From: Acidimicrobiales bacterium
GTDB taxonomy: Bacteria > Actinomycetota > Acidimicrobiia > Acidimicrobiales > DASSOZ01
Direction of reading: 5' to 3'
Length of the DNA stretch: 64,000 bases
Assembly: GCA_035700105.1 (NCBI GenBank)
Contig: DASSOZ010000029.1
Coordinates: 13,605-77,604 of the forward strand
The notes under the pieces were generated by a model. That model saw nothing but the letters and a program-made list of their open reading frames with translations, did not search any database and was not told where the DNA came from. A program made the translations under genes and the position numbers. The stretch's first letter is position 1, and each line of letters opens with the position of its first letter. This document shows, piece after piece, positions 32 to 54,307 of this stretch.

Positions 32-49
32 CCTGACACGGGCGTCAGG
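32..49. promoter_or_regulatory. 18-bp palindrome CCTGAC-ACGGGC-GTCAGG (operator candidate)
   Basis: Perfect arms. Lies 50 nt upstream of usp ATG 100, and the TATCGT -10-like box at 63-68 follows it. Confidence 0.6.
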
Positions 50-99
50 GTAGCGGGAGCGATATCGTCGCATCGCGACCGACCACGGGGGGTGGGGTC

Positions 100-543
100 A
101 TGTTCCGGAACATCGTCGTCGGCTTCGACGGCACGCCGACTTCGACCGAGGCGCTCAACCGGGCGGCCGATCTCGCGGCGCTGGCGGGTGCGCATCTCCA
201 CATCGTCTCGGCGTACGCGCCCGGCACGAAGGTCAGCGACGTCGGTCGGGGCGACAACGGCTGGCTGGTCGGTACGCACACGGCGAAGCACGCCAACGGC
301 GCCCGCCGCATCGTCAAGAACGCCGCGGCGGCGCTCGTGGCCGAGCGGGCGCTCGGCGTCACGACGCACACGGCGCAGGGCGAGCCCGCGGACGTGCTCG
401 TGCGCATCGCCGCCGAGGCCCAGGCCGACCTGATCATCGTCGGCAACAAGGGCATGCGCGGCGCCCGCCGCGTCCTCGGCAGTGTCCCGAACCGGGTGGC
501 GCACAAGGCGCCGTGCGGGGTGATGATCGTCCAGACCACCTGA
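100..543 (+). CDS. universal stress protein (UspA family)
   Basis: 147-aa ORF with N-terminal IVVGFDGT and C-terminal LIIVGNKGMRG...GSVPNRVAHKAPCGVMIV, typical of the Usp ATP-binding fold. A G-rich SD (GGGGGGTGGGG) lies just upstream of ATG 100. Confidence 0.85.
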   Translation: MFRNIVVGFDGTPTSTEALNRAADLAALAGAHLHIVSAYAPGTKVSDVGRGDNGWLVGTHTAKHANGARRIVKNAAAALVAERALGVTTHTAQGEPADVLVRIAAEAQADLIIVGNKGMRGARRVLGSVPNRVAHKAPCGVMIVQTT

Positions 544-547
544 CTAC

Positions 548-565
548 TCTGACGCCCGTGTCAGG
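548..565. promoter_or_regulatory. 18-bp palindrome TCTGAC-GCCCGT-GTCAGG (operator candidate)
   Basis: Lies in the usp/fadD-like gap, 28 nt upstream of ATG 594. Its reverse complement matches the 32-49 copy at 17 of 18 positions. Confidence 0.6.
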
Positions 566-593
566 GAACGTCCCCGCGCCCGGCGAGGCGCCG

Positions 594-2261
594 ATGCCGG
601 CCGCCAACGCGGCCGCGCTGCTGCGCCGGAACGCGTCGGATCCGTCGATCGCCGGCCGGGTCGCGGTGCGCGCCGGCGACGAGACCTGGACGCACGGCGC
701 GTACGTCGACGAGTGCTGCCGCTGGGCCCAACTGTTCCTGTCACGCCGAACGGACGACGCGCCCTTTCACGTCGGGGTCCTGCTGGACAACGTGCCGGAG
801 TACCTGTTCGCGCTCGGCGGTGCGGCGCTCGCCGGTGCAACGGTCGTCGGCCTGAACCCGACGCGCGTCGGTGAGCACCTGGTGCGCGACGCGACCCACA
901 CCGATGTCGCGTTCGTCGTGACGGAGCCGCGGCACGAGTCGACCGTCGAGCCGCTGTCGTCGTCGATGGAGGTGCTCGTCGCCGGGTCGTCGCTCGACAA
1001 GGCGCTGGCATCGGTGCCGGAAGGAGACCCCGGCATCGAACCGGACGCGTCGACGCCGTGGGCGCTGATCTTCACGTCGGGCACGTCGGGCGCGCCGAAG
1101 GCGGTGATCTGCTCGCAGCGCCGCATCATGGTGACGGGCACGCGGATGGGCATCATCCTCGGTGTCGGACCCGACGACGTCGGCTACGTCTGCATGCCGC
1201 TGTTCCACTCGAACGCAGTCATGGTCGGGTGGGCGCCGTCGCTCGTCTACGGGTGCTCGGTCGCGCTGGCGCGGCGGTTCAGCGCGTCGGGGTGGCTGCC
1301 CGACGTCCGCCGCTACGGCGCGACGTACTGGAACTACACGGGCAAGCCGCTGGCGTACCTGCTGGCGACGCCCCAGCACGCCGACGATGCGAAGAACCCG
1401 CTGCGCGTCGCGTACGGCAACGAGGGCGCGCCGCGGTTGGTCGAGGCGTTCGCCCGGCGCTTCGACGTGCAGGTGATCGACGCCTTCGGTGCGACGGAGG
1501 GCGGCGTCGCGGTGCAGCGGGTGGACGGCATGCCCGACGGCGCGGTCGGCCTGGCGGGCGAGCACGTGCGGGTCGTCGACGCGGAAACGGGTGCGGAACG
1601 TCCGCGGGCGCGTTTCGGTGCCGACGGCACGCTCGAGAACCCGACCGAGTGCGTCGGCGAGATCGTGAACACCGGCGGCGTCGGCCCGTTCGAGGGCTAC
1701 TACAACAACGACGAGGCCAACGCCCGCACGATGCGCAACGGGTGGTACTGGTCCGGCGACCTCGGCTACCTCGACGCCGACGGGTACCTGTTCTTCGCCG
1801 GGCGCAACGCCGACTGGATCCGGGTCGACGGCGAGAACTTCCCGGCGGGTCCGATCGAGAACGCGGTGCTCCGGCACCCGGACGTGCTGGCGGGCGCGGT
1901 GTACGGCGTGCCCGACGCGCAAGCCGGTGATCAGGTCATGGCGTCGCTGGTGCTGCGCGACGGCGCGTCGTTCGACGGCGCTGCGTTCGCGTCGTTCGTC
2001 GACGGGCTCGCCGACGTCGGTCCCAAGTGGCGGCCGCGTTACGTGCGGGTGTGCCGCGAGCTGCCGCGCACGCCGACGAACAAGGTCCTCGCGCGCGTCC
2101 TGGTCCACGAGAAGTTCCGACTCGACCGCGTGGGCCCCGGCGATGCCGTCTGGGTGCGCGGTCGCGACGATGCGTCCTACCGGCCGTTCGACGCTGGCGC
2201 GGAGGCCGCGCTGCGCGACGAGTTCGCCGCGAACGGCCGCGCCCGGTTCTGGGACCTGTGA
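594..2261 (+). CDS. acyl-CoA synthetase / AMP-dependent ligase (FadD-like)
   Basis: AMP-binding signature IFTSGTSGAPKAV, then GDLGYLDADGYLFFAGR and C-terminal PRTPTNKV. The ORF-track start at 513 overlaps usp, so I chose in-frame ATG 594, preceded by GGCGAGG. The start is uncertain. Confidence 0.85.
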   Translation: MPAANAAALLRRNASDPSIAGRVAVRAGDETWTHGAYVDECCRWAQLFLSRRTDDAPFHVGVLLDNVPEYLFALGGAALAGATVVGLNPTRVGEHLVRDATHTDVAFVVTEPRHESTVEPLSSSMEVLVAGSSLDKALASVPEGDPGIEPDASTPWALIFTSGTSGAPKAVICSQRRIMVTGTRMGIILGVGPDDVGYVCMPLFHSNAVMVGWAPSLVYGCSVALARRFSASGWLPDVRRYGATYWNYTGKPLAYLLATPQHADDAKNPLRVAYGNEGAPRLVEAFARRFDVQVIDAFGATEGGVAVQRVDGMPDGAVGLAGEHVRVVDAETGAERPRARFGADGTLENPTECVGEIVNTGGVGPFEGYYNNDEANARTMRNGWYWSGDLGYLDADGYLFFAGRNADWIRVDGENFPAGPIENAVLRHPDVLAGAVYGVPDAQAGDQVMASLVLRDGASFDGAAFASFVDGLADVGPKWRPRYVRVCRELPRTPTNKVLARVLVHEKFRLDRVGPGDAVWVRGRDDASYRPFDAGAEAALRDEFAANGRARFWDL

Positions 2262-2267
2262 GCTGAC

Positions 2268-3401
2268 GTGGACCTGCGACTGACCGACGAGGAGGAGGCG
2301 TTCGCGCTCGACGTGCGGACGTGGCTGGCTGACAACCTCGACGCGCCGCCGTCGTTCTCGTCGATGGACGACGAGGTGGCGTGGGGGCGCGAGTGGCAGC
2401 GGCGTTTGGCTCGCGACCGGTGGGTCGGCATCCACTGGCCGTACGAGTACGGCGGCCGCGGCGCCCCGCCGGTGCAGGTCGCCATCTTCAACGCCGAGTA
2501 CGCCCGGGCCGGCGCGCCGCAACCGGTCAACCGGGTGGGCATCAACCTCGCCGGCCCGACGCTGCTCGCCCACGGCACGGACGAGCAGAAGGCGCGGTGG
2601 CTGCCGTCGATCCTCACCGCCGAGGAGATCTGGTGCCAGCTGTTCAGCGAGCCCGAGGCCGGGTCGGACCTCGCGTCGCTGCGAACGACGGCGACACCGG
2701 TCGGCGACGGGTGGGTGCTCAACGGGCAGAAGGTGTGGACGTCGTACGCGCAGTACGCGCGGTGGGGCATCTGCCTCGCCCGCACCGACGTCGACGCGCC
2801 CAAGCACCGCGGCATCTCCTTCCTCGTCGTCGACATGGACGCGCCGGGCATCGAGGTCCGCCCGCTCGTGCAGATCACCGGCGAGGCAGAGTTCAACGAG
2901 GTGTTCTTCGACGAGGTGTTCGTGCCGTCGTCGCACCTCGTCGGCGGTCTGAACCAGGGGTGGGCGGTGGCGTCGACGACATTGGCGCACGAGCGGGGGA
3001 CGGCGTTCCCGTTCAAGGAGCAGGTCGTCCACGAGGTGTACCTCGACGAGCTGTTCCGCTCCGCTCGCGATCGTGGGCTGCTCGACGACGTCGAGGCGCG
3101 CGACGGGCTGGCGCAGTCGTTCGTCGAGCTGCGGGTGTTGCGCCTGCTGAACTGGCGCACGCTGTCGCGGCTGTCGCGCGGCGAGCAGCCGGGCGCCGAG
3201 TCGTCGATCACGAAGCTCGTGTGGTCGGACATGACGCAGCACCTGTCGTCGGTTGCGCTCGCGCTGGAGGGCCCGGCGTCCCCGCTGTGGGGCCGTTGGG
3301 AACGTCAGTGGCTGTGGTCGAAGGCGGCGTCGATCGCCGGCGGGACCTCCGAGGTGCAGCGGACGATCATCGGTGAGCGGCTGCTGGGGCTGCCGCGCTG
3401 A
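2268..3401 (+). CDS. acyl-CoA dehydrogenase
   Basis: 377 aa with ACAD motifs: WCQLFSEPEAGSDLASL, WTSYAQYARWG, and C-terminal IAGGTSEVQRTIIGERLLGLP. GTG start lies 6 nt after the fadD-like stop. Confidence 0.9.
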   Translation: MDLRLTDEEEAFALDVRTWLADNLDAPPSFSSMDDEVAWGREWQRRLARDRWVGIHWPYEYGGRGAPPVQVAIFNAEYARAGAPQPVNRVGINLAGPTLLAHGTDEQKARWLPSILTAEEIWCQLFSEPEAGSDLASLRTTATPVGDGWVLNGQKVWTSYAQYARWGICLARTDVDAPKHRGISFLVVDMDAPGIEVRPLVQITGEAEFNEVFFDEVFVPSSHLVGGLNQGWAVASTTLAHERGTAFPFKEQVVHEVYLDELFRSARDRGLLDDVEARDGLAQSFVELRVLRLLNWRTLSRLSRGEQPGAESSITKLVWSDMTQHLSSVALALEGPASPLWGRWERQWLWSKAASIAGGTSEVQRTIIGERLLGLPR

Positions 3402-3606: not shown

Positions 3607-3657
3607 CGAACTGGGCGTAGATCCGTACCGCAGAGGTACAGATCTACGCCGAGTTCG
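3607..3657. repeat. 51-nt palindromic repeat, family 1 copy A (probable bidirectional terminator)
   Basis: CGAACTGGGCGTAGATCCGTACC-GCAGA-GGTACAGATCTACGCCGAGTTCG: 23-nt arms with 2 mismatches and a 5-nt loop. Near-identical to 18843..18893. The right arm encodes the last codons and stop of the convergent hyuA. Confidence 0.8.
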
Positions 3658-5725
3658 TTGCGGTTCTCAGGTCGTACGTCCCGGCGGCGTCGAGCGTGCA
3701 CGTCCAGCCGGGGGCGACGACGACGACCGTGAACGGCTCCTCGACGAGTGCGGGGCCGTCGACCGACGCGCCGGGCGCGAGGGCGGCGCCGTCGTAGACC
3801 GGCGTGTCGACCCAGCCGTCGCCGAACCACACCGGACGCGCGCCGGTGCGGGCCTGCGACGCGTCCGTGACGGTGCCGACAACCGCGAGCGCGTCGGGCT
3901 TCGGGGTGCGCCCCGACGCGGCGAGTCGCACGCCCCTCAGCAGCGGCTGCTGGTTGCGGAACGCGAACCCGCGGTCGGCCTCGTGCAGGTCGTGGAACCG
4001 GCCGGCGAGGTCGAACAGACCCGGCTCGTCGAGGCCGGCGCCGCCGTCCGGCACCGGGACGCTCATGTCCCAGTTCTGGCCCGGATAGCACATGAGCGCG
4101 TACGCGCTGCGGGTCACGTCGTCCGGCGACAGGTTGGCCGGCGCGAGCTCGTGGTCGGCCTCGTCGGCGAGCTCGGCGAACAGCTTCTTCACGCGGGCGA
4201 CGTCCACCCGCGACAGGGGGGTGACGTAGGCCCGCGTCAGGTCGATCACGTAGTCGGCGACGAGCAGGCCCAGTGCCGAGAACGCCGGCGCCGCCTTCGG
4301 CACCAGCACCCTCGAGATGCCGAGCTCGGGCGCCTGCGCCCACGCATGCACGGCGCCGTTGCCGCCGTAGGCGATCATCGCCAGATCTCGCGGGTCGGCG
4401 CCGTACTGGGCGACGACCCTGCGGACTGCGTTCGCCATGTTGGCGTTGACGATGCGCTCGATCCCCCACGCGGCGTCGACGGCGTCGAGACCGAGCGGTT
4501 CGCCGACGTCACGGGCGATCGCGGCACGGGCGGCGTCGACGTCCAGGCGCATGCGGCCGCCGGCGAACGTGTCGCCGGCCGGCAGATACCCGAGCACGGC
4601 GTCGGCGTCGGTCACCGTCGCGCGGCGACCACCCCGCCCGTAGCAGACGGGACCGGGTTGGGCGCCGGCGGACTCGGGCCCGACGAGCAGTGCGCCCTGC
4701 CGTACGGACGCGATCGACCCGCCGCCGGCCCCGACGGACTCGACGTCGACCATCGGGATCCCGATGTAGTAGCGGTACCGCCAGTTGTCGTCGGTCTTCA
4801 GCACCGGCTGCCCGTCGCGCACCAGGCAGACGTCGTACGACGTGCCGCCCATGTCGACGGCCACGAAGTCGGGCGCCCCGCTGCGGGCCGCGGCGACGGT
4901 CGAACCCATCACGCCGCCGGTCGGACCCGATGCCAGCAGCGACACCGCCCGCTTGCTGACGTACTCGGGCGGCATCACGCCACCGGTCGACTGCATGATC
5001 AGCATCTGCCCGCCGAACCCGGCGTCGCGCAGCTTGCCGGTGAGCCGCTGCGTGTACGACGCGATCCGGGGCGCGACGTACGCGTTGACGAGCGTCGTCG
5101 ACGTCCGCTCGAACTCCGGCGCCTTCGGCATCACCTCGTGTGACAGCGAGATGTGCGCGACGTCGGGGTACTCCTCGACGATCAGCTCGCGCGCCCGCAG
5201 CTCGTGCGCGGGGTTCGTGAACGAGTGCAGGAAGACGACGGCGATGGAGGTGCAGCCGAGCTTCCGCAGTCGCTGCACCCCGGCGCGCACCGCCGCCTCG
5301 TCGAGCGGCAGGACGACGTTGCCGTCGACGTCGAGGCGCTCGGGGATCGGGATGCGGGCACGCCGCCGGGCGATCGGCGGGGGAGCGGGATACGACGGGT
5401 CCCAGATCTCCTCCTTGTGCACCCGCCGCATCTCGATCTCGTCGCGGTGGCCTTCGGTGACGAGCAGCCCGGTGGGTGCACCGTCCATCTCGATCATCGT
5501 GTTGTCCGCGGTCGTCGTCCCGTGCACGAGCGCGTCGAGCTGCGCGCAGAAGTCGGACAACGAACACCCGACGTGCGTCGCCAGCAGCTCGAGCCCGTTC
5601 ATCACCCCGGCGGACTGGTCGTCGGGCGTAGTGGGCGTCTTGTCGAGGATCACCTCGCCCGACGGCGTGACGCAGATCAGGTCGGTGAACGTCCCGCCGA
5701 CATCGATGCCGACGCGAAATCCCAT
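3644..5725 (-). CDS. hyuA: hydantoinase/oxoprolinase A subunit (N-methylhydantoinase A-like)
   Basis: True start MGFRVGIDVGGTFTDL lies inside the 998-aa ORF-track entry, giving 693 aa. ATGA start/stop overlap with the upstream B subunit at 5725. Hydantoinase_A-type ATPase motifs are present (DMGGTSYDV). Confidence 0.9.
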   Translation of the reverse strand: MGFRVGIDVGGTFTDLICVTPSGEVILDKTPTTPDDQSAGVMNGLELLATHVGCSLSDFCAQLDALVHGTTTADNTMIEMDGAPTGLLVTEGHRDEIEMRRVHKEEIWDPSYPAPPPIARRRARIPIPERLDVDGNVVLPLDEAAVRAGVQRLRKLGCTSIAVVFLHSFTNPAHELRARELIVEEYPDVAHISLSHEVMPKAPEFERTSTTLVNAYVAPRIASYTQRLTGKLRDAGFGGQMLIMQSTGGVMPPEYVSKRAVSLLASGPTGGVMGSTVAAARSGAPDFVAVDMGGTSYDVCLVRDGQPVLKTDDNWRYRYYIGIPMVDVESVGAGGGSIASVRQGALLVGPESAGAQPGPVCYGRGGRRATVTDADAVLGYLPAGDTFAGGRMRLDVDAARAAIARDVGEPLGLDAVDAAWGIERIVNANMANAVRRVVAQYGADPRDLAMIAYGGNGAVHAWAQAPELGISRVLVPKAAPAFSALGLLVADYVIDLTRAYVTPLSRVDVARVKKLFAELADEADHELAPANLSPDDVTRSAYALMCYPGQNWDMSVPVPDGGAGLDEPGLFDLAGRFHDLHEADRGFAFRNQQPLLRGVRLAASGRTPKPDALAVVGTVTDASQARTGARPVWFGDGWVDTPVYDGAALAPGASVDGPALVEEPFTVVVVAPGWTCTLDAAGTYDLRTATNSA

Positions 5726-7536
5726 CAGGCCGCCGACCGGCGCTCGGCCCGCAGCGCGACGGTCGCGTCGACGTCGACGTCGAGCGTCAGGTCCTCGAGC
5801 GAGCCGGTGAGCACGACGCCGTAATCGCGCCGCGCGCCCTCGACCGAGACGTACTCGTCGAGGACGTCGTCCAACACTGCCTGCGGGTCGCGGTCGAGCG
5901 GGTCGCCCCAACCGCCGCCGCCGCCGTAGTCGTAGCAGAGGCGCTCGCCCGCCTCGTGCGGCACCCAGTTGGCGGTGTGGGCGACGACGTCCTCGTGGTC
6001 GGACCCGTAGTGCAGCGTCAACCGGTTCGGTGCGCCGGGGGCGCCACCGGCGATGCCCGGCATCGGGTACTTCATGCCGACGACGTAGGTGTAGAGCTTG
6101 AACGGGACGAGCACCTGCTTCACCCAGTGGCTGCCGCACAGCCCGCGCCACTGCCCGGGACCCCCGCTGTCGGTGCGGTAGTCGCGGCCCCACTGGATGT
6201 GGGGGAAGATCGACTCGTTGATCTCGGCGGTCGCCTTCCAGAGGTTGCCGAACGACGCGGCCTGCGCGCCCCACGCGTCCATGCCGCGCGCGGCGTTGCA
6301 CCAGCCGGCGTAGACCTCCGTCGACGGGTCGACGAACTGTTGCCCGGTGCGCGGGTCGACACCGGTGATCGTCGTCGGGATGCCCGTCTTGTACGTCTGC
6401 GGGACGGCCTTGTCCGGCAGCACGTGCTCGAACGCCTTGGCGATGACCTCGCCGATGTCGGCGCCGGGGTGGTGCGTGCCCGCGCTGACGGGCTTGCCGT
6501 TGCGGGGGTTGAGGACGCAACCGAGTGGCGCGACGAGCTCGATCGACTCGAAGAAGCCCTCGTTCTTCGGGATCGCCGGGTCCATCATCGAGGCGATCTG
6601 GGCGATCGTGTAGCCGCGCGTGTTGCCGTACGTCGACCACGCCTGGATCTCGTCGCGCGTGTCGGACCCCGTGTAGTCGATGCGGAGGTGGTCACCGTCG
6701 ACGGTGATCTTCACGTGGATGTGGATGTCGGGGTTGCCGAGCGGGTCGTGGTCGACGTACGCGTCGGCCTCGTACGTGCCGTCGGGCCACGCGCTGACCT
6801 CTTCGCGGAAACGCCGCGACGCGTAGTCGATCATGTAGTCGACGCTGCTCTTCACGGCGTCGGCGCCGTAGCGCTCGACGATCTCGGTGAGGCGGCGGGC
6901 GGCGAGCTGCGCGGCGCCGATCTGCGCGCGCAGGTCGCCGAGGTAACCGGGCAGGCGGTTGTTCGTCTGCAGCGCGTAGAGGACGTCGCGCCGCTCCTCG
7001 CCGCGGTCGATCACCTTGACGACCGGCCAGCGCACGCCCTCGCCCCAGATGTCGTTGGCCGTGACGTTGTACCCGCCGGGGACCGCGCCGCCGGTGTCGC
7101 CGTGATGGCACTGGATCGAGGGGATCAGCAGCAGTTCGCCGGTCGCCGGGTCGTGCACGGGGGCGAACACGTTGTAGTCGGGGAGGTGCCCACCGCCGTG
7201 GTAGGGGTCGTTGGCGACGAACACGTCGCCCGGACGGAACTCGCCGGCGCCGAGGTACTCGAGCGCGAACCGGATGGGCAGCGCGCTCGACAGCATGAAC
7301 TGCGGGATGCCGACGCTGAGCGCGGCGAGCCTGCCGGAGGCGTCGAGGATCGACCCGTTGCGCTCGTTCGACTGGTTCAGGATGGGCGTCGTCGCCGTGC
7401 GGGAGACGTAGGTCGCCATCTCCCAGCAGACGGTCTCCATCGCGCCGCGCACGACCTCGGCCGTGACCGGGTCGACGTCCGACGTGCCGCCCAGTTGCCC
7501 GCGCTGGCCGGCGAGCTGGACCAGGTCGACGTCCAT
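5725..7536 (-). CDS. hyuB: hydantoinase B / oxoprolinase family subunit
   Basis: 603 aa with DPVTAEVVRGAMETV and YHGGGHLPDYNVFAPV, typical of the Hydantoinase_B family. SD GGGAGC lies 8 nt upstream of ATG 7536. Confidence 0.9.
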   Translation of the reverse strand: MDVDLVQLAGQRGQLGGTSDVDPVTAEVVRGAMETVCWEMATYVSRTATTPILNQSNERNGSILDASGRLAALSVGIPQFMLSSALPIRFALEYLGAGEFRPGDVFVANDPYHGGGHLPDYNVFAPVHDPATGELLLIPSIQCHHGDTGGAVPGGYNVTANDIWGEGVRWPVVKVIDRGEERRDVLYALQTNNRLPGYLGDLRAQIGAAQLAARRLTEIVERYGADAVKSSVDYMIDYASRRFREEVSAWPDGTYEADAYVDHDPLGNPDIHIHVKITVDGDHLRIDYTGSDTRDEIQAWSTYGNTRGYTIAQIASMMDPAIPKNEGFFESIELVAPLGCVLNPRNGKPVSAGTHHPGADIGEVIAKAFEHVLPDKAVPQTYKTGIPTTITGVDPRTGQQFVDPSTEVYAGWCNAARGMDAWGAQAASFGNLWKATAEINESIFPHIQWGRDYRTDSGGPGQWRGLCGSHWVKQVLVPFKLYTYVVGMKYPMPGIAGGAPGAPNRLTLHYGSDHEDVVAHTANWVPHEAGERLCYDYGGGGGWGDPLDRDPQAVLDDVLDEYVSVEGARRDYGVVLTGSLEDLTLDVDVDATVALRAERRSAA

Positions 7537-7554: not shown

Positions 7555-7572
7555 CCTGACATGAGCGTCAGG
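7555..7572. promoter_or_regulatory. 18-bp palindrome CCTGAC-ATGAGC-GTCAGG (operator candidate)
   Basis: Perfect 6-bp arms. Lies 18 nt upstream of the hyuB start, in the 48-bp gap after the LLM oxidoreductase stop. Confidence 0.6.
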
Positions 7573-9715: not shown

Positions 9716-9733
9716 CCTGACACGCGTGTCAGA
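9716..9733. promoter_or_regulatory. 18-bp palindrome CCTGAC-ACGCGT-GTCAGA (core is a perfect 16-mer CTGACACGCGTGTCAG)
   Basis: Centred in the 48-bp divergent gap between the amidohydrolase start (9694) and the thiolase start (9743). Confidence 0.65.
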
Positions 9734-9742: not shown

Positions 9743-10930
9743 GTGGCAGACATCCGTGAGGCGGTCATCGTCGACACCGTCCGCACCGCGTTCGGCAAGC
9801 GCGGTGGGGCGCTGGCGAACTGGCACCCGAGCGACCTGCTCGGGTTCACGCTGACCAACCTCCTCGAGCGCAACGACGTCGACCCGAACCTCGTCGACGA
9901 CGTCGTCGGTGGGTGCGTCACCCAGTCGGGCGAGCAGGGCTGCAACGTCACCCGCAACGCGTGGGTCGCCGCCGGGCTGCCGCAACGGGTGCCGGCGACG
10001 TCGGTCGACCGGCAGTGCGGCTCGTCGCAGCAGGCTATGCACTTCGTCGCCGCGTCGGTGATGGCCGGCGTCTACGACCTGGCGATCGCGTGCGGTGTCG
10101 AGTCGATGAGCCGGGCGCCGATGGCGTCGAACGCCCGTGGCGGGACGGGACCGTTCTCGCCGTCGTACCTCGACGCGATCGACGGCCAGCTCTGGGCGCA
10201 GTTCCGGGTCGCCCAGGTGCTCGCCGAGCGGTCGAAGATCACGCGTGAGGACATGGACGAGTACGCCCTCGAGTCGCACCGGCGTGCGGCGGCGGCGACC
10301 GACAGCGGCCACTTCGCCCGCGAGATCCTGCCGGTCCCGCTCAAGGACGAGCACGGCGACCTCACCGGCGACGTGCTGTCCGCCGACGAGGGCATCCGGC
10401 GGGGCGGGACGATGGAGTCCATGGCGAAGCTGCCACCGGCGCAGTCGTGGGAGCCGGAGACGGCGCCGGACATCACCGCCGGCAACTCGTCGCAGATGAC
10501 CGACGGCGCCGCAGCGATGCTCGTCGCGTCCTCCGACACCGCCGAGCGCCTCGGGCTGCCCGTCCGGGCCCGCGTCGCGGCGATGTCGGTCGAGGCCGAC
10601 GACGCGGTGCTCGTGCTGAGCGCCCCGAACCCCGTCACCCGCAAGCTGTTCGGGCGCTACGGCTACACCACCGACGACTTCGACGCCGTGGAGTGCAACG
10701 AGGCGTTCGCCGCCATTGCGCTCATGTGGGCGCGCGAGTTCCTCCCGGACATGGAGCGGTTCAACCCCCGCGGCGGCGCCATCGCCATCGGCCACCCGCT
10801 CGGCGCGTCGGGCGTGCGCATCACGACGACGCTGCTCAACCACCTCGAGGCCACCGGTGGCCGGCGCGGCTTCCAGACGATGTGCGAGGGCGGCGGCCAG
10901 GCGAACGCGACCGTGATCGAACGCGTGTAG
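9743..10930 (+). CDS. acetyl-CoA acetyltransferase / thiolase
   Basis: 395 aa from GTG 9743 (VADIREAVIVDTVRTAFGKRGG). Active-site context VDRQCGSSQQA, then NEAFAA, GGAIAIGHPLGASG and CEGGGQANA. Confidence 0.85.
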   Translation: MADIREAVIVDTVRTAFGKRGGALANWHPSDLLGFTLTNLLERNDVDPNLVDDVVGGCVTQSGEQGCNVTRNAWVAAGLPQRVPATSVDRQCGSSQQAMHFVAASVMAGVYDLAIACGVESMSRAPMASNARGGTGPFSPSYLDAIDGQLWAQFRVAQVLAERSKITREDMDEYALESHRRAAAATDSGHFAREILPVPLKDEHGDLTGDVLSADEGIRRGGTMESMAKLPPAQSWEPETAPDITAGNSSQMTDGAAAMLVASSDTAERLGLPVRARVAAMSVEADDAVLVLSAPNPVTRKLFGRYGYTTDDFDAVECNEAFAAIALMWAREFLPDMERFNPRGGAIAIGHPLGASGVRITTTLLNHLEATGGRRGFQTMCEGGGQANATVIERV

Positions 10931-10960: not shown

Positions 10961-13900
10961 GTGGAGGGCAAAGGGGGCGTCCTCGGCACCGTGTCGGTGC
11001 TGTTCACCGATCTCGTCGGGTCGACGGAGCAGCGCGTCCGCCTCGGCGAGGACGCGGCCGACGCCCTCCGTCGCGTCCACGACGAACTCGTCGGCGCCGC
11101 CGTCGTCGGCTCGGGCGGAACCGTGGTGAAGCGTCTGGGCGACGGGGTGATGGCGACGTTCCCCGCCGCCGCCGACGCGGTCGCCGCTGCCGTCGCGATC
11201 CAGCAGGCGATCGCCCGGCACGGCGCGGCGGTGACCGACCCCGGCCGGCGACTCGCCGTGCGGATCGGCCTGTCGACCGGCGACGTCATGGTCGAGGGTG
11301 ACGACGTCCACGGCACGCCCGTCGTCGAAGCGGCCCGCCTGTGCGCGAGCGCGCTGGGTGGGGAGATCCTCGCCGCCGAGCTCGTCCGCATGCTCGCCCG
11401 CTCACGCGGCGTCGCGACGTTCGAGCCGATCGGCGACGTCGAGCTCAAGGGCCTGCCCGAGCCGGTCGCGACGTGCCGCGTGCTGTGGGAGCCGGAGGCG
11501 GACGCGGGCGGCGCTCGGCCGCCGCTGCCGCCGCTCCTCGTGGGCACCCCGGCGACGGGGTACGTCGGGCGCGACGGGCTGCGGGCGACGCTCGCGGATG
11601 CGTGGCGTGGCGTCGCCGCGGGCGGGTGCCGCGCCGTCCTGCTCGCCGGCGAGCCGGGCGTGGGCAAGACCCGGACGGCCGCCGAGCTCGCCCGGCTCGC
11701 GTACGACGAGGGCGCGGTCGTGCTCTACGGCCGCTGCGACGAGGACCTCGGCGCGCCGTACCAGCCGTTCGTCGAGGCGCTCACCGCGTACGCGATGGAC
11801 GCGCCACCCGACGGGGTGCACCTCGGTCGCCTGCCGGGCGAGCTGACCCGCCTCGTCCCCGAGCTCTCCGAGATGGTCACCGGGGTGGGCGCGCCCGTGG
11901 CGTCCGATCCGCGCTCGGAGGAGTACCGCCTGTTCGAGGCGACGGCGTCGTGGCTCGTCGACGCCGGCCGGGCGAGTGGGCTGGTGCTGGTCGTCGACGA
12001 CCTCCACTGGGCGGCTCGCCCGACGCTGCAGCTGCTGCTGCACGCGCTTCGGGCCGCATCGGCGGAGCGCGACGCCCGCGTGCTGGTGGTGGGGACGTAC
12101 CGCGACACCGACATCGACCGGTCCCACCCGCTGTCGGACGTGCTCGCCGAGCTCCGGCGCCTCCCGCTCGTGTCGCGCCTCTCCGTCGACGGGCTCACCG
12201 AGGACGAGGTCGTGGCGTTCGCCGAGGTCGCGGCCGGGCACGAGCTCGACGACACCATCCGCGCCCTTGCCCGCACGGTGCACGCGGAGACCGACGGCAA
12301 CGCCTTCTTCGTCGGCGAGGTGCTGCGACACCTCGTCGAGGTCGGCGCCGTCCGCCGCGACGGCGACCGCTGGGTCGTCGCCGCGGGCGCCGTCGACGTG
12401 CCGGAGGGTGTCCGCGATGTCGTCGGCCGGCGCGTGTCGCGCCTGTCCACCGACGCCAACACCGTCCTCTCCGTCGCGGCCGTGGTCGGGCGCGAGGGCG
12501 ACCTCGACGTGGTCGCCGAGGTGGTGGACCTGCCCGAGGGCGCAGTGCTCGACGCGTTCGACGAGGGCGTGCGCGCCAGGCTGCTCGAGGAGAGCGACGT
12601 CGACCGGTACCGCTTCGCCCACGCGCTCGTGCGGACGACGCTGTACGACGAGCTGTCGGCGACCCGGCGGCGCCGGCTGCATCGACGCATCGCGGAGACG
12701 CTGGAGAAGCTGCATCGCGACGACGTGGTCGCGCTGGCCTATCACTCGTTGCAGGCGGGTCCCGACGGTGGCGACGCGACGCGCGCCGCTCGGTACTCGA
12801 TGGCTGCGGGCGACCAGGCGTTGGCGCAGCGGGCCCTGGCCGACGCCGAGGTTCGGTACCGCACCGCGCTGGAGCTCGTCGACGACAGCGGCATCGTCGA
12901 CGAGGACGTCCGGCTGCGCGCCATGTGCGGGCTGGGCGAGGCCCTGCGTGACCAGGCCCGCCCCGAATACCGCGAAACGCTCCTGCGCGCCGCCCGCGAC
13001 GCGCGGACGGCCGGCCTCACGGACCTGCTCGTGCGGGCCGTGCTGTCGAACGACCGCGGCTACGCGTCGATGATCGGGCGCGTCGACGACGAGCGGGTCG
13101 AGATGATCGAAGCCGCGCTTGCCGCCGTCGGCGACGCGCCGACCGCGGAACGCATCCGACTCGTCGCGCTGCTGTCGCAGGAGCTGTTCTTCGGGCCGCA
13201 GCGCGACCGCGCCCGCCGGCTCGGTGCCGAGGCAGAAGCACTGGCACGCGACGTCGACGACGACCGGCTCCGCTGCGAGGTCGTCATCCGCTGCGGCCTC
13301 TCGAGGATCCACCAGATCCCCTTCCCGGAGTACCTGGTACGGATCGAAGAGGGCGCGGCGATCGCCGAGCGGCTCGGCGATCCGGCCCTTCGCGTTGTCA
13401 CCGGGTTGTTCCTGTCGTCGGCACGGCTGACCGTCGGCGACGTCGACGGCGGCCGGGCCGCGGACGCGGCCAACGTTGCGGGCGCGTCGGATGGCTCGCC
13501 GTCACTCGTGTGGACGGCGAGGTCACACGCGATGAAGTGGGCGGTGGCGTGCGACCCGATCCCGGTGTCGACGGCGGCGAACGACGAGTGCCGCGACATG
13601 GGCGAGCGCGCGGGCGAGCCCGACCATCTCAACTGGTGGGCGGCGACGTTCGGCGCGATCGACATGATGCGTGCCGGCGACGTCGCCGCGCTGGCCGACG
13701 TCGCCGGCGCCTACGCGGCCGAGTACCCGGGCGCGCCCACGTGGCGGATGTTGCAGGCGCTCGCACTCGCCGACGCAGGCCGGGTCGACGAGTGCGACGC
13801 GCTGATATCGCGCCACGGCCTCGACCCCCGCCGGCTCATCGACGAGCCGTTCCCGTTCGTCGCCGCCGCGGGATGGGCACGACTCGCGCACCGCCTACGG

Positions 13901-14254
13901 CGGCCCGACATGGCGCGGGACGCCGCCGAACTGCTCACGCCGCATTCGGGGCTCTGGACGCACTTCTTCCTCGCGACCTGGGGTCCGGTCGACTACGACC
14001 TCGCGCTCTGCGCGTCGTTGCTCGGCGAGCACGACCGTGCCGTCGAGCTCGCCACCGGTGCGCTCGCGATCGTCGCCGACGCCGGGATGGTCACGCTGCG
14101 CGACCACCTGTCGCTCGGTGTCGCCGACGTACTGCGTGGCGCGGGGCACGGCGACCGCGCCCGCACGCTGCTGCGCGAGGTCGTCGACAGCACCGCGGTG
14201 ACCGGTGCCGACGGCGTGCGCGCACGGGCGCTGGCGATGCTCGGGGAGGTCTGA
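10961..14254 (+). CDS. class III adenylate/guanylate-cyclase-homology domain + P-loop STAND/AAA ATPase + TPR-like helical repeats; no DNA-binding domain seen
   Basis: N-terminus VSVLFTDLVGST...VKRLGDGVMATF (cyclase homology). Walker A LLAGEPGVGKTRTA, then VLVVDDLHWA. The long C-terminal alpha-repeat region ends without a LuxR-type HTH. Confidence 0.8.
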   Translation: MEGKGGVLGTVSVLFTDLVGSTEQRVRLGEDAADALRRVHDELVGAAVVGSGGTVVKRLGDGVMATFPAAADAVAAAVAIQQAIARHGAAVTDPGRRLAVRIGLSTGDVMVEGDDVHGTPVVEAARLCASALGGEILAAELVRMLARSRGVATFEPIGDVELKGLPEPVATCRVLWEPEADAGGARPPLPPLLVGTPATGYVGRDGLRATLADAWRGVAAGGCRAVLLAGEPGVGKTRTAAELARLAYDEGAVVLYGRCDEDLGAPYQPFVEALTAYAMDAPPDGVHLGRLPGELTRLVPELSEMVTGVGAPVASDPRSEEYRLFEATASWLVDAGRASGLVLVVDDLHWAARPTLQLLLHALRAASAERDARVLVVGTYRDTDIDRSHPLSDVLAELRRLPLVSRLSVDGLTEDEVVAFAEVAAGHELDDTIRALARTVHAETDGNAFFVGEVLRHLVEVGAVRRDGDRWVVAAGAVDVPEGVRDVVGRRVSRLSTDANTVLSVAAVVGREGDLDVVAEVVDLPEGAVLDAFDEGVRARLLEESDVDRYRFAHALVRTTLYDELSATRRRRLHRRIAETLEKLHRDDVVALAYHSLQAGPDGGDATRAARYSMAAGDQALAQRALADAEVRYRTALELVDDSGIVDEDVRLRAMCGLGEALRDQARPEYRETLLRAARDARTAGLTDLLVRAVLSNDRGYASMIGRVDDERVEMIEAALAAVGDAPTAERIRLVALLSQELFFGPQRDRARRLGAEAEALARDVDDDRLRCEVVIRCGLSRIHQIPFPEYLVRIEEGAAIAERLGDPALRVVTGLFLSSARLTVGDVDGGRAADAANVAGASDGSPSLVWTARSHAMKWAVACDPIPVSTAANDECRDMGERAGEPDHLNWWAATFGAIDMMRAGDVAALADVAGAYAAEYPGAPTWRMLQALALADAGRVDECDALISRHGLDPRRLIDEPFPFVAAAGWARLAHRLRRPDMARDAAELLTPHSGLWTHFFLATWGPVDYDLALCASLLGEHDRAVELATGALAIVADAGMVTLRDHLSLGVADVLRGAGHGDRARTLLREVVDSTAVTGADGVRARALAMLGEV

Positions 14255-18249: not shown

Positions 18250-18267
18250 CCTGACATCGGCGTCAGG
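18250..18267. promoter_or_regulatory. 18-bp palindrome CCTGAC-ATCGGC-GTCAGG (operator candidate)
   Basis: Perfect arms. Lies in the divergent gap between the SDR-ADH operon (start 18228) and the Asp/His-rich protein gene (start 18330). Confidence 0.6.
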
Positions 18268-18329
18268 GTCGTGGTCGTAGCACCATCGACCGATGGTCGT
18301 TGCGACGTGTGCGGGCGGACGATCACCAC

Positions 18330-23281: not shown

Positions 23282-23298
23282 CGGGACGACTCTATACT

Positions 23299-23686: not shown

Positions 23687-23704
23687 GTGACCGCCTGTTC
23701 CCTC

Positions 23705-30662: not shown

Positions 30663-30675
30663 GTGGACGCGCCCC

Positions 30676-31818: not shown

Positions 31819-31821
31819 CGA

Positions 31822-32752: not shown

Positions 32753-32770
32753 TCTGACGTTCGTGTCAGT
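32753..32770. promoter_or_regulatory. 18-bp palindrome TCTGAC-GTTCGT-GTCAGT (operator candidate)
   Basis: Lies in the 63-bp divergent gap between the SDR-ACAD-Ltp operon (start 32733) and the OYE-type reductase (start 32797). Confidence 0.6.
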
Positions 32771-37304: not shown

Positions 37305-37322
37305 CCTGACGTACACGTCACA
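37305..37322. promoter_or_regulatory. 18-bp palindrome CCTGAC-GTACAC-GTCACA (right arm degenerate)
   Basis: Lies in the 59-bp divergent gap between WS/DGAT (start 37278) and MaoC (start 37338). It sits between the TTGAAA -35-like box (37299-37304) and the TATGGT -10-like box (37324-37329). Confidence 0.55.
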
Positions 37323-41265: not shown

Positions 41266-41276
41266 CACCCCCGTTC

Positions 41277-41324
41277 GAGGTTGATGCCGTGGACCCCCGT
41301 GAGCGGTGGTCCACGGCATCAACC
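41277..41324. repeat. 48-nt palindromic hairpin repeat, family 2 copy B
   Basis: AGGTTGATGCCGTGGACC-CCCGTGAGCGGT-GGTCCACGGCATCAACCT: perfect 18-bp stem and 12-nt loop, which ends in AGCGGT as in copy A. Confidence 0.8.
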
Positions 41325-41348
41325 TGGATGGGATGAACCGGTCCAAAC

Positions 41349-41366
41349 CCTGACACGACCGTCAGG
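41349..41366. promoter_or_regulatory. 18-bp palindrome CCTGAC-ACGACC-GTCAGG (operator candidate)
   Basis: Perfect arms. Lies 44 nt upstream of GTG 41411. Confidence 0.6.
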
Positions 41367-51093: not shown

Positions 51094-52632
51094 CTAGCTC
51101 CCGTCGTCTTGGGGCGTGTACGGGAACCAGTCGGTCGGGTGGCAGTCGAGCGGCGTCCGTGTCACCCAGCCGCCGGCGGAGTCCTGCCACTGGTGCATCG
51201 CGTAGCAGTTCGTGCCCGGCTTCGAGTGGTCGATCGGCTTCCACGAGATGTTGCGGAAGAGACCGACCGCGGCGTACGGGTCCGGCCGCGCGTTCAGCCA
51301 GTCGACGAGACCCTTGCGCGTCGGGCCGGCGCCCATCGACGCGACGCCGTCGGTGAAGATCTTGCCGGCGGCCCACCCCTCCAGCGCCCACTGGTGCAGC
51401 CGGAAGCCGGGGTCGAACTTCTTCATCGCCGAACGGAACTCGGCGACGGCGGGGTCGCCGGTGTCGGTGTACGACTTCGACTCGGTGTCGACCCAGATCG
51501 AGTTGCGGCACGGCGCCGAGAAGTCCTTCAGCTTGTCGCCCATGCCCTGGATCGTCGACACGTTCGCCTTGACCGTGAACGCGTAGCGGTCCATCGCCTG
51601 GCACAGCTTCTGGAAGCCGGCGATGTCGATCGAGTTCCAGATGGCGTCGACGCCGCGGTTGCGCATCTGGATGACGTCGGTGTCGAACGTCGGCGCTGCA
51701 GGGTTCATCCCGGCCTCGCTGCCGCCGCCGTAGTAGGTGACGTCGATGCCGGCGCGCGTGGCGCCGTCCGCCATCATCAGCCCGGCGGTGCGCGAGATCG
51801 GGATGAAGTAGAAGAACACCGCCGCCTTCGAGACGCCGACCTTCTGCTTGTAATACGTGTAGAGGTTCGTCGCCCGGTAGAGCTTCCCGTTGTCGCCGAT
51901 GCTCTTGCCGTCGCGAGGCGTGTCGGCACCGATGATCGAGAAGAGGTGCGGATACTTGTAGTAGGCGTTGCCGATCGGCTGGCCGCCGACGTCGGGCACG
52001 CCCTTCGAGTCGACGTAGCGCGCTGACGCGTACGTGTCGGTCGAGTTGGCGACGAGGGCGAACACCTTCTGGTTCTCGACGAGATTCTGCGCGCAGGCGT
52101 TGTCGCGGTCGGACGATTCACGGTCGTCGCACGTCGAGAACCGGATCTTTCGACCGTTGACGCCACCGCGCTCGTTCAGCGCCTGGAAGTACGCCTGGGC
52201 GCCGTGGAGCATCCCGCTGAAGATGTCGGGTCCAAGCGGGCCGCCGACCGCGGTGATGTTCCCGACCTTGATCTCGCTCGCCGTCACCCCGACGTCGGAC
52301 GCGGTGTTGGCGCCGCCGCCGCCGCCGCCCCCGTTCGCATCCTCCAACACACTCGCGTTTCCGGGCCCGTTCGCGGCCGCAGAACGCGAGTCTGTTGGAG
52401 AATGCGCGTCGGGCGCGGGCCCGGTGGCTGTCTCGCCGCCGGAGCCGCCGTCGTCGTTCGTGCCGTCGGCGCCTGGCGCGCCGGCGCCGGCGCGGCGGCC
52501 GGAGGCGTCGGCACCGGTGCCGGAGCCGGACGCGGTGAACGCGTCGTCGGGCAGGCGCGTCCCGCAGCCGGCCACCACGGCGGCGACGAGGACGAGCGTG
52601 AGGAAGAGGAGCGTTGTGCGAGCGCGCAGCAT
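51094..52632 (-). CDS. LIV-type (periplasmic-binding-protein type 1) ABC substrate-binding lipoprotein, paralog 2
   Basis: Lipobox LVLVAAVVAGCG, then a ~100-aa G/A/D-rich linker and a PBP1 body (IKVGNITAVGGPLGPDIFSG...). Tandem paralog of 52707..54272. Confidence 0.85.
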   Translation of the reverse strand: MLRARTTLLFLTLVLVAAVVAGCGTRLPDDAFTASGSGTGADASGRRAGAGAPGADGTNDDGGSGGETATGPAPDAHSPTDSRSAAANGPGNASVLEDANGGGGGGGANTASDVGVTASEIKVGNITAVGGPLGPDIFSGMLHGAQAYFQALNERGGVNGRKIRFSTCDDRESSDRDNACAQNLVENQKVFALVANSTDTYASARYVDSKGVPDVGGQPIGNAYYKYPHLFSIIGADTPRDGKSIGDNGKLYRATNLYTYYKQKVGVSKAAVFFYFIPISRTAGLMMADGATRAGIDVTYYGGGSEAGMNPAAPTFDTDVIQMRNRGVDAIWNSIDIAGFQKLCQAMDRYAFTVKANVSTIQGMGDKLKDFSAPCRNSIWVDTESKSYTDTGDPAVAEFRSAMKKFDPGFRLHQWALEGWAAGKIFTDGVASMGAGPTRKGLVDWLNARPDPYAAVGLFRNISWKPIDHSKPGTNCYAMHQWQDSAGGWVTRTPLDCHPTDWFPYTPQDDGS

Positions 52633-52650
52633 CGAGGGGGGCGAACGTGG

Positions 52651-52668
52651 AATGACGTGCGTGTCAGG
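52651..52668. promoter_or_regulatory. 18-bp palindrome AATGAC-GTGCGT-GTCAGG (left arm degenerate)
   Basis: Lies 18 nt upstream of ATG 52632 of SBP paralog 2. Confidence 0.5.
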
Positions 52669-52706
52669 TTTCGCCGCCGCCCCGCCCCGCCCCTGCTGCC
52701 TCGGGG

Positions 52707-54272
52707 CTACGAACCGTCGTCGGTGGGGGTGTACGGGTAGTACGGCATGTCGCCGCACTGCTTCGCCCGCGTCACGAACGTCCCGGCCGAGTCCTGCCAC
52801 TGGTGCAGGTCGAAGCAGTCGCTGTGCGGCTTCGAGTGGTCGAGCGGCTGCCACGAGACCGGGTCGTCCATCAGTCCGGCGATCGTGTAGTCCGCGTCGT
52901 CGCCGATCGAGTTGAGCCAGTCGACGAGGCCCTTGCGCGTCGGCGACGCGCCCATCTTCGCCACACCCTCGGTGAACAGCTTCCCGGCCGCCCACCCCTC
53001 GAGCGCCCACTGGTGGAGCCGGAAGCCCGGGTCGAACTTCTTCATCGCCGCCCGGAACTCGGCGACCGGCGCGCTCGTGGTCTCGGCGTACGACTTCGAG
53101 TCGGTCTGGGCCCACACGTCGTTGCGGCACGGCGCGCTGAAGTCCTGCCCGACCTTCTGGCTCATGCCCTGGATCGTGGAGACGTTGGCCTTCACGCGGA
53201 AGCTGTAGCGGTCCATCGCCTGGCACAGCTTCTGGAAGCCGGCGATGTCGATCGCGTTCCAGATGCCCTGCACGCCCCTGTTGCGCATCTGGATGACGTC
53301 GGTGTCGAACGTCGGCGCCGCCGGGTTCATGCCGGCGTCGCTGCCGCCGCCGTAGTAGACGGGCTCGATGCCCTGCTGGCGCAGGCCGTCGGCGATGAAC
53401 ATGCCCGCGGTGCGCGAGATCGGGATGAAGTAGAAGAAGACGGCGGCCTTGTCGATCTTCACCTGCTGCTTGAAGTACCGGTACGCGCCGCCCTGCGCGT
53501 AGAGCTTGCCCTTGTCGCCGACGCTCTTGCCGTCGCGCGGCGTGTCGACGCCGAGGATCGAGAACAGGTGGGGGTACTTGTAGTAGGCGTTGCCGATCGG
53601 CTGGCCGCCGATGTCGGGCACGCCCTTCGAGTCGATGTACTTCCCGGCGGCGAACGTGTCCGTCGACCCGGCGACGAGGGCGAACACCTTCTGGTTCTCG
53701 ACGAGGTTCTGCGCGCAGGCGAGGTCGCGGTCGGACGACTCGCGGTCGTCGCACGTCGAGAACTTCACCTTGCGGCCGTTGACGCCGCCTCGCTCGTTGA
53801 GCGCCTGGAAGAACGCCTGGGCGCCATGGAGCATCCCGCTGAACGCCTCTGGGCCGATGGGGCCGCCGACCGCGGTGATGTTGCCGACCTTGATCTCGCT
53901 CGCCGTCACGCCGACGTCCGACGCCGTGTTCGTCGCGCTCGCACCGGTCCGCGTCGGTTCGCCGGCGCCGGCACCACCACCGTCCCCACCCGCACCGCCG
54001 TTCTCCGACGCAGTCGGAGTCTGCGCCCCGTTCTGGGCCCCGGGATCCGATCCTGTTGGAGCACCCGGGGACGCGGTGCTCGTGTCGAGGGCGTCGTCGC
54101 CGGCGGCCTGATCGCCGCCCGAGGCAGCTGCGGTGCGACCACCCGGGCGAACCTCGCCCCCCGTGCCGGCGGCGGTCTGGAAGGCCTCGTCGGGCAGCCG
54201 CGTCCCGCACGACGCCGCGAGCAAGCCCACCGCCGCCATGACGACCCAGACCGGTCGGACGCGTCGACGCAC
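52707..54272 (-). CDS. LIV-type (PBP type 1) ABC substrate-binding lipoprotein, paralog 1
   Basis: GTG start with a G6 SD. Lipobox LLAASCG and a long low-complexity linker. The body is collinear with paralog 2, and the C-termini match (PYYPYTPTDDGS versus WFPYTPQDDGS). Confidence 0.85.
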   Translation of the reverse strand: MRRRVRPVWVVMAAVGLLAASCGTRLPDEAFQTAAGTGGEVRPGGRTAAASGGDQAAGDDALDTSTASPGAPTGSDPGAQNGAQTPTASENGGAGGDGGGAGAGEPTRTGASATNTASDVGVTASEIKVGNITAVGGPIGPEAFSGMLHGAQAFFQALNERGGVNGRKVKFSTCDDRESSDRDLACAQNLVENQKVFALVAGSTDTFAAGKYIDSKGVPDIGGQPIGNAYYKYPHLFSILGVDTPRDGKSVGDKGKLYAQGGAYRYFKQQVKIDKAAVFFYFIPISRTAGMFIADGLRQQGIEPVYYGGGSDAGMNPAAPTFDTDVIQMRNRGVQGIWNAIDIAGFQKLCQAMDRYSFRVKANVSTIQGMSQKVGQDFSAPCRNDVWAQTDSKSYAETTSAPVAEFRAAMKKFDPGFRLHQWALEGWAAGKLFTEGVAKMGASPTRKGLVDWLNSIGDDADYTIAGLMDDPVSWQPLDHSKPHSDCFDLHQWQDSAGTFVTRAKQCGDMPYYPYTPTDDGS

Positions 54273-54289
54273 GGAACCCCCCAGTAAGT

Positions 54290-54307
54290 CCTGACGTCCG
54301 TGTCAGG
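54290..54307. promoter_or_regulatory. 18-bp palindrome CCTGAC-GTCCGT-GTCAGG (operator candidate)
   Basis: Perfect arms. Lies 17 nt upstream of GTG 54272. The right arm contains the stop codon of the upstream MFS gene. Confidence 0.6.

Follow-up and report, generated by a model that had tools for sequence, protein, structure and literature searches.

The TetR-type regulators KstR and KstR2 of Mycobacterium and Rhodococcus act through short palindromic operators that lie in the divergent gaps between catabolic genes, tens of base pairs from the start codons, and that also occur at the regulator's own gene. Their targets include genes for acyl-CoA dehydrogenases (ACADs), thiolase/Ltp proteins, MaoC-like hydratases, short-chain dehydrogenases/reductases (SDRs) and acyl-CoA ligases. 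For KstR2, the operator is a 14-bp sequence, AnCAAGnnCTTGnT, with motif-to-start distances of 22–82 bp (PMC3068626). A similar arrangement is described here for a 64-kb stretch of DNA from an Acidimicrobiales bacterium (positions 13,605–77,604 of contig DASSOZ010000029.1; 72% G+C; hereafter the window), in which 11 copies of a palindrome with the core CTGAC-N6-GTCAG precede genes mostly related to lipid metabolism. A preliminary description of the window compared these sites to a KstR-type regulon with a different operator sequence, and our analysis agrees on both points: the target genes and their placement in divergent gaps are alike, and the KstR and KstR2 motifs are not matched.

The differences from the known systems are clear. 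The present operator spans 22 bp (W-n-CCTGAC-N6-GTCAGG-n-W, where W is A or T), in contrast to the 14 bp of the KstR2 site, and CCTGAC-N6-GTCAGG does not match the KstR operator TnnAACnnGTTnnA (as quoted in the preliminary description). Unlike the hosts of KstR and KstR2, the organism belongs to the class Acidimicrobiia, and no steroid-ring degradation genes were seen here; the substrate is therefore more likely to be fatty acids or lipids. The candidate regulator discussed below, a TetR-type protein, scores 24.9 bits against the NCBIfam model of KstR (NF033703), compared with a cutoff of 280. The proposed control of many fad-like operons (ACAD, thiolase, electron transfer flavoprotein (ETF) and ligase genes) by one repressor is also reminiscent of TetR-type FadR (Bacillus YsiA, Thermus) and of PsrA/FadP in proteobacteria. 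The resemblance to Bacillus FadR is at the level of the fold and the helix-turn-helix (HTH) only, with scores of 37.9–48.7 bits against NF053878 (cutoff 200). FdmR, a TetR repressor of fatty-acid and sterol side-chain degradation in M. marinum and M. neoaurum, is comparable in gene content, which includes ltp-type thiolases. Searches of the accessible literature returned no description of the present motif and none of a regulon in Acidimicrobiia.

The sites described below exist, are non-random and promoter-proximal, are conserved before orthologous genes, and are linked, in related genomes, to the promoter or operon of a TetR gene. We consider it likely, with a probability of roughly 0.7, that the 22-bp operator is bound by a dimeric HTH factor, for which an EthR-like TetR protein with the invariant recognition-helix segment SHGTFYLYF is the best candidate, and that this factor co-ordinately represses a lipid regulon of Acidimicrobiia. 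The regulon would most likely comprise fatty-acid and lipid catabolism, uptake and storage. Both physical binding and the sign of regulation are inferred here from sequence.

Identification and placement of the sites

Genes in the window were called with a home-made model based on G+C content by codon position (GC3), which yielded 53 genes that were annotated with Pfam; start codons were adjusted with the help of the sequence itself and of gene calls publicly available for near-identical contigs. The exact core CTGAC-N6-GTCAG occurs nine times in the window, compared with 0.09 expected from dinucleotide-preserving shuffles. Allowing one mismatch gives 12 matches (3.5 expected), with the imperfect sites at 37305 and 52651 gained in addition to a match at 58124–58139. 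The latter lies inside coding sequence, lacks the purine-pyrimidine (R-Y) pattern of the other sites and scores less than 10 bits, and was rejected as a chance match. When the window is scored with a symmetrised matrix derived from the 11 sites, these reach 19.1–25.9 bits, and the rest of the window is empty above 10 bits, a clean bimodal separation. The coordinates and sequences of the 11 sites in the preliminary description were all correct.

All 11 sites are intergenic, though 93% of the window is coding by our own calls (naive chance probability ∼1e-13). They occupy five of eight divergent gaps, five of 35 co-directional gaps and none of nine convergent gaps, and the site at the left edge of the window (32–49) becomes a sixth divergent case if the ACAD-ligase operon located outside the window, on contig L001, is counted. 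Four sites (548, 7555, 52651 and 54290) directly follow a co-directional upstream gene. Every site lies 5–50 nt from a start codon once the starts are refined; the promoter proximity reported previously thus stands for all 11 sites, and only its range, originally 5–62 nt, needed revision.

Anatomy of the operator

An alignment of 137 related sites, each oriented to its downstream gene, extends the description of the element. No variation is seen at positions 3, 5, 6, 13 and 14, and very little at positions 4, 15 and 16. The R-Y steps at positions 7–8 and 11–12, which had been noticed in the window sites, recur in the 137 sites. Two bases beyond each arm, an A is found on the left in 89 sites and a T on the right in 84; in the window, these positions (-1 and 20) are A or T in 9/11 sites on the left and 11/11 on the right, against an overall A+T content of 28%. 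Based on these symmetric A/T flanks, the true unit is a 22-bp palindrome, W-n-CCTGAC-RY-nn-RY-GTCAGG-n-W, of which only 18 bp had been described. No alignment column outside the 22-bp dyad is informative, and therefore no -35 or -10 box is present at a fixed offset; the distance from site to start codon spreads from -24 to 119 nt.

Two further features of the sites were observed. The half-sites are often mixed, with CTGACA in one arm and CTGACG in the other (63 of 102 unique sites from the window and related loci L005–L084, vs ∼49 expected), which hints at a preferred asymmetric operator, with the count inflated by orthologous sites. In one Acidimicrobiales subgroup (L025:1351–1368, L015:725–742 and similar loci), the right arm reads GTCATG, and the called ATG of the ACAD gene falls within the operator, which suggests that the leaders of these genes are very short or absent.

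Conservation and gene content in related genomes

Near-identical contigs of the window were found in soil metagenomes, and orthologues of the window ACAD encoded at 24230–25429 (65–77% identical) are present in metagenome-assembled genomes whose labels are Acidimicrobiales, Acidimicrobiia or Microthrixaceae. The window is therefore assigned to an uncultured soil member of the Acidimicrobiia. The related set analyzed here consists of 80 loci (L005–L084; 1.37 Mb, 82% coding by our own caller). Matrix matches of at least 16 bits in these loci comprise 85 intergenic and 22 'coding' ones, several of the latter being visibly miscalled starts. The intergenic preference is also found in related loci, and none of the window sites occupies a gap with 3' ends only.

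Comparison of orthologous promoters shows that the motif is conserved upstream of ACAD, thiolase/ETF, amidohydrolase, acyl-CoA ligase and SDR genes. In many genomes, a site is retained in the divergent ACAD gap (at about position 9950–9980 of the loci), and the sequence CCTGACATGGTAGTCAGG in the thiolase/ETF gap is kept in nine loci, one of them from a genome of only 55% G+C. The arms are unchanged across genomes of 55–75% G+C. The genes downstream of the sites most often encode ACADs (53), followed by amidohydrolase_2 proteins (18), 2-hydroxyacid dehydrogenases (14), FGGY kinases (10), thiolases (9), DoxX proteins (8), acyl-CoA ligases (5) and SDRs (5), with MaoC, cytochrome P450 and ETF genes in addition. 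When metagenomes were scanned by the pattern CCTGACACNNNNGTCAGG alone, the low-G+C contigs gave chance matches, and the high-G+C contigs contained the same gene families.

A conserved protein of 122–148 residues (MP..EHDH..DTGKS...), with a weak match to DUF4363 only, is encoded in L047 (15598–16044, + strand), L027 and L045. Its gene is divergent from the thiolase gene, across the conserved CCTGACATGGTAGTCAGG, a place that is taken by the ETF beta gene in other genomes.

A candidate regulator of the TetR family

The preliminary description suggested a search for an HTH regulator with the site in its own promoter. Such a regulator, a group of related TetR proteins, was found in related loci and not in the window. 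In L007, the TetR gene is divergent from an acyl-CoA ligase gene, and the site is located 27 nt upstream of the TetR gene. Five contigs that had been selected by the motif alone (L094, L189, L114, L108 and L139) also encode members of this group. The site precedes the TetR gene by 30 nt in L094, 86 nt in L189, ∼25–35 nt in L114 and 47 nt in L108, and a weak 10-bit site is found 25 nt upstream in L139. Conversely, four contigs were selected by TetR homology alone. In L205, a site precedes the TetR gene by 105 nt. The other three contigs, L208, L210 and L215, have a P450/ligase operon with TetR as its final gene and a site of 20–23 bits in the divergent promoter gap. The TetR gene is also the last gene of an operon in 12 ACAD-centred loci, in the order site, ACAD, enoyl-CoA hydratase, CoA transferase, dehydrogenase and TetR. 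In total, ∼22 related loci have the motif in the promoter of the TetR gene itself or at the head of its operon, and in every case the surroundings are a fatty-acid gene cluster organised around the divergent ACAD pair that the window also contains. Since strong sites have a background of only ∼1 per 12 kb, i.e. ∼1% per 150-nt upstream region, the association between site and TetR gene is far beyond chance.

Members of the group are 36–70% identical overall, and the HTH segment RGYHAARVDDIV...SHGTFYLYF..KEDL is invariant, which fits a conserved operator. Protein searches returned more than 2,900 homologues at E≤1e-10; identity is 63% or higher throughout the best 120, and the entries with an organism name are labelled Acidimicrobiales. 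The closest relatives of the TetR profile with solved structures are EthR (1.7e-18), the best match over the full length, and then Bacillus FadR (∼1e-15), and some homologues match the Pfam family EthR_C (PF21313). The candidate scores far below every cutoff of the NCBIfam equivalogs KstR, FadR, FasR, MftR and PsrA, and its closest actinomycete homologues in a plasmid collection are at most 32% identical. On these sequence grounds, the factor that binds the operator is most likely this uncharacterised EthR-like TetR group, which is widespread in Acidimicrobiales.

Several points weigh against this assignment. Neither the 64-kb window nor the adjoining 7.8 kb on the left (L001) contains a TetR gene, the latter having only two-component genes in addition to the ACAD and ligase genes; on the right, the contigs that were recovered stop at the same thiolase gene. 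The presence of the TetR gene elsewhere in this genome is therefore assumed. The TetR gene could also be a mere regulated member, as membership in a regulon is not proof of binding. A near-identical palindrome occurs at MerR promoters (see below), so that the protein family cannot be told from the sequence of the dyad alone. Sites at orthologous positions do not count as independent, and the 22 strong matches in 'coding' sequence of the related loci have to be set against the intergenic ones, with the reservation that these gene calls are home-made. Finally, overlap of the operator with the -10 region or the transcription start is judged from the start-codon distances and the gap sizes; a scan of 20 kb with an E. 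coli-type sigma-70 consensus returned no promoters, which is uninformative for this genome.

Alternative explanations

The palindromes might be RNA or DNA secondary structures rather than protein binding sites, for example hairpins in 5' untranslated regions, intercistronic processing or terminator hairpins, or elements similar to repetitive extragenic palindromes (REP). Every copy can indeed fold into a hairpin (5–11 bp, -8 to -20 kcal/mol), and the four copies at 548, 7555, 52651 and 54290 are located just after a co-directional gene. However, these hairpins are modest, their fold z-scores mostly do not stand out (between -1.3 and -3.3 in seven of eight cases), an Rfam scan of the window returned no match, and compensatory changes are found at none of the varying pairs. 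The fraction of complementary pairs is 0.32 for pair 7/12, 0.40 for pair 8/11 and 0.62 for pair 2/17, compared with 0.46, 0.45 and 0.65 expected under independence; the 23 C/T breaks at pair 2/17 are never accompanied by a compensating change, nor are the one-sided arm changes GTCAT and GTTAG. In addition, the arms are invariant over the whole range of G+C contents, both orientations are used, divergent gaps contain no 3' end, and the convergent gaps have no sites. The earlier claims that the arm sequence itself is conserved, beyond its complementarity, and that the pattern of conservation fits a dimeric DNA-binding protein better than an RNA hairpin are supported. Taken together, the lack of covariation, the modest folds, the negative Rfam scan and the absence of sites from gaps with 3' ends only in practice exclude RNA or REP-like elements, and we regard this explanation as extremely improbable. 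It is somewhat less improbable, though still quite unlikely, that the palindrome is part of a promoter, or a site for an activator or an alternative sigma factor, such as the bidirectional core of back-to-back leaderless genes. Five of the six bases of CTGACA agree with the -35 box TTGACA, the centres in the tightest divergent gaps read TANNNT on both strands (TAGCGT at 25443–25448, TAGTGT in L011 and TAATGT in L006), the start codon lies inside some sites (GTCATG), and independent promoters were not detected. On the other hand, the majority of sites have a G+C-rich centre that does not resemble a -10 box, and the distances vary from -24 to ∼119 nt with no -10/-35 signal at a fixed offset in the 137 oriented sites, the same result that bears out the earlier view that a core promoter element is unlikely. 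Perfect symmetry over 22 bp, together with A/T flanks, is characteristic of sites for dimeric HTH proteins rather than of sigma recognition, and the linked regulators belong to the TetR family, whose members act mainly as repressors, as is well established.

A third possibility is that the sites are operators of another factor, with the TetR gene then being only a member of the regulon. We consider this unlikely, yet it has the best claim among the alternatives. The preliminary description was right that the window has no TetR, GntR, IclR or MarR gene (Pfam scans of the 53 called genes); its implication that the window offers no candidate was not, as a NarL/LuxR-type response regulator (18894–19505) and a HisKA_3 kinase adjoin the site at 18250. 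The regulator gene is located ∼630 nt from this site, and LuxR-type boxes share CTG-N10-CAG with the palindrome. Nevertheless, 2.2 Mb of loci contain no homologue near the sites, except for one 45% match on a contig whose pattern match is coding, and the NarL/LuxR regulator was set aside for this lack of co-occurrence. A MerR protein is suggested by palindromes 17–42 nt upstream of homologous MerR genes in five independent metagenome contigs; one of these MerR genes, on L148, shares a divergent gap with a thiolase gene. These dyads, CCTGACA-N4-TGTCAGG (L090:7604–7621, L092:548–565, L121:123–140, L148:4400–4417 and L157:2174–2191), are near-identical to the present 18-bp core. LiuR, a repressor of branched-chain and fatty-acid genes, is a member of the MerR family (RegPrecise-type papers, in which the consensus is not printed). 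The five contigs, however, are not Acidimicrobiia-like, and the encoded MerR proteins, which contain cysteines, score as metal or redox sensors similar to CueR, ZntR, MerR or SoxR. Four of the five MerR sites have the canonical arrangement, in which TTGACC overlaps the left arm and is separated from a -10 box by a 19-nt spacer (L157 lacks the TTGACC). In canonical MerR promoters, the dyad lies in a 19–20-bp spacer between -35 and -10, whereas the window sites have no fixed geometry, and the MerR arrangement is absent from the 137 Acidimicrobiia sites. A MerR homologue was found neither in the window nor in the 80 Acidimicrobiia loci. MerR was therefore rejected as the Acidimicrobiia factor on the grounds of taxonomy, promoter architecture and family type; the MerR dyad looks like a separate system, an autoregulated metal or redox MerR subfamily whose operator resembles the present one by chance. 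A CRP-like protein is a further candidate, as CRP/FNR sites share the 5-6-5 geometry, while their sequence (TGTGA-N6-TCACA) differs. The distances from the start codons vary and would be too short for class I or II activation, and CRP-family genes were not seen beside the sites, in genomes not searched specifically for them.

Individual sites and neighboring genes

Site 1 (32–49, CCTGACACGGGCGTCAGG, 24.1 bits) is located 50 nt upstream of the universal stress protein gene usp, and the divergent operon just left of the window (L001) encodes an ACAD and an AMP-ligase. Site 2 (548–565, TCTGACGCCCGTGTCAGG, 23.7 bits) precedes the ATG of an acyl-CoA ligase gene (594) by 28 nt and heads a ligase-ACAD operon (594–3401, + strand). 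Site 3 (7555–7572, CCTGACATGAGCGTCAGG, 25.9 bits) lies 18 nt from the start of hyuB (7536, - strand) and heads the hyuB-hyuA operon (3644–7536, - strand). Site 4 (9716–9733, CCTGACACGCGTGTCAGA, 25.9 bits) is found in a 48-nt divergent gap, 21 nt from the start of an amidohydrolase_2 gene (9694, - strand) and 9 nt from the GTG of a thiolase gene (9743, + strand).

Between this thiolase gene and a P450 gene, with gaps of 30 and -1 nt, the window encodes a protein of 1097 residues (10961–14254, + strand) that combines a class III nucleotide cyclase with an AAA_16 (STAND-like) ATPase. It resembles the mycobacterial cyclase-ATPase-LuxR proteins, but no C-terminal HTH was detected in it, and it was rejected as a regulator.

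Site 5 (18250–18267, CCTGACATCGGCGTCAGG, 23.5 bits) is shared by two divergent genes. One, 21 nt away, is the SDR gene (start 18228, - strand) of an SDR-alcohol dehydrogenase (ADH) operon (16187–18228); the other (18300–18806, + strand), at a distance of 32 nt, encodes a secreted protein of 168 residues with repeated Asp/His-rich DDHGG/DDPATHDVGDDHGG motifs. The neighbors of the latter gene, at 18894–20833 and 21260–23281 (both - strand), encode the NarL/HisKA_3 two-component system, a P-type ATPase and another, small secreted protein. Together with the Asp/His-rich protein, they look like a metal-handling module.

Site 6 (25435–25452, GCTGACGCTAGCGTCAGG, 21.3 bits), with the centre TAGCGT on both strands, fills the 28-nt gap between two divergent ACAD genes, which start at 25429 (- strand) and 25458 (+ strand). 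Site 7 (32753–32770, TCTGACGTTCGTGTCAGT, 24.2 bits) is also in a divergent gap, 19 nt from the start of an SDR gene (32733, - strand), which belongs to an SDR-ACAD-Ltp thiolase-ACAD-C operon (28625–32733), and 26 nt from the start of an old yellow enzyme (OYE) reductase gene (32797, + strand). The weakest site, site 8 (37305–37322, CCTGACGTACACGTCACA, 19.1 bits), separates a wax ester synthase/diacylglycerol acyltransferase (WS/DGAT) gene (start 37278, - strand), at 26 nt, from a divergent gene for a MaoC-like hydratase (ATG 37338, + strand), at ∼15 nt; the latter start is backed by a homologous start in L094.

Site 9 (41349–41366, CCTGACACGACCGTCAGG, 22.2 bits) is located 44 nt upstream of a secreted-protein gene (41411, + strand); behind this gene, ABC permease and ATPase genes of the branched-chain type extend to 47112. 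An inverted repeat at 41275–41328, with 25-nt arms (92% complementary) and a 4-nt loop, is found 20 nt upstream of this site, after a subtilase gene, and is probably a terminator-like hairpin lacking a T-tract. Sites 10 (52651–52668, AATGACGTGCGTGTCAGG, 21.9 bits) and 11 (54290–54307, CCTGACGTCCGTGTCAGG, 24.5 bits) each precede a solute-binding lipoprotein gene on the - strand, at 18 nt (51094–52632) and 17 nt (52707–54272), respectively; for the latter, the distance is 50 nt by a shorter JGI call. Site 11 overlaps the stop codon of the upstream major facilitator superfamily (MFS) gene. Two segments of the otherwise densely coding window, 27780–28624 (845 nt) and 23282–23718 (437 nt), are unusually long stretches in which no gene could be called with confidence and no open reading frame matches Pfam.

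Proposed mechanism and implications

We propose that the operators, 5–50 nt from the start codons and often in divergent gaps of 22–70 nt, would place a bound dimer or a pair of dimers over the -10/start region of one or both promoters, thereby excluding RNA polymerase. Since the divergent gaps can be as short as 22–28 nt, any promoter in them must overlap the dyad, and such an overlap supports promoter occlusion by a TetR dimer, with autoregulation. An acyl-CoA or a related lipid ligand would release the repressor, so that all operons, including the repressor's own gene, would be induced together. Induction by an acyl-CoA-type ligand is suggested by analogy with FadR, KstR2 and PsrA.

A more far-reaching version of this scheme, which is tentative and rather doubtful at present, is that a single EthR-like TetR protein serves as a class-wide master switch of Acidimicrobiia with well over 100 genes, and that the operator in the tightest gaps holds the overlapping -10 elements of two leaderless promoters, so that one dimer could silence both. 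The switch would then control beta-oxidation, Liv-type ABC uptake with two binding proteins, and wax-ester/triacylglycerol synthesis by WS/DGAT, as well as the hydantoinase-like carboxylases and the universal stress protein.

The control scheme itself is familiar, a variation on the theme of KstR and FadR; what is new is the DNA motif and the candidate regulator, which extend known biology rather than change it. Soils, waters, and wastewater or activated sludge harbour Acidimicrobiia in abundance, among them lipid-accumulating relatives of Microthrix. To our knowledge, the class has essentially no characterised transcription factors and is genetically almost unstudied. The operator and the candidate repressor form a protein-DNA pair that is directly testable. 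By scanning for the motif, the lipid-catabolic regulon could be predicted for any metagenome-assembled genome of the class, and a shared site may provide functional hints for genes with poor annotation, for example those of the amidohydrolase_2, hyuAB-like and DoxX proteins, the Liv-type transporter and the 148-residue protein.

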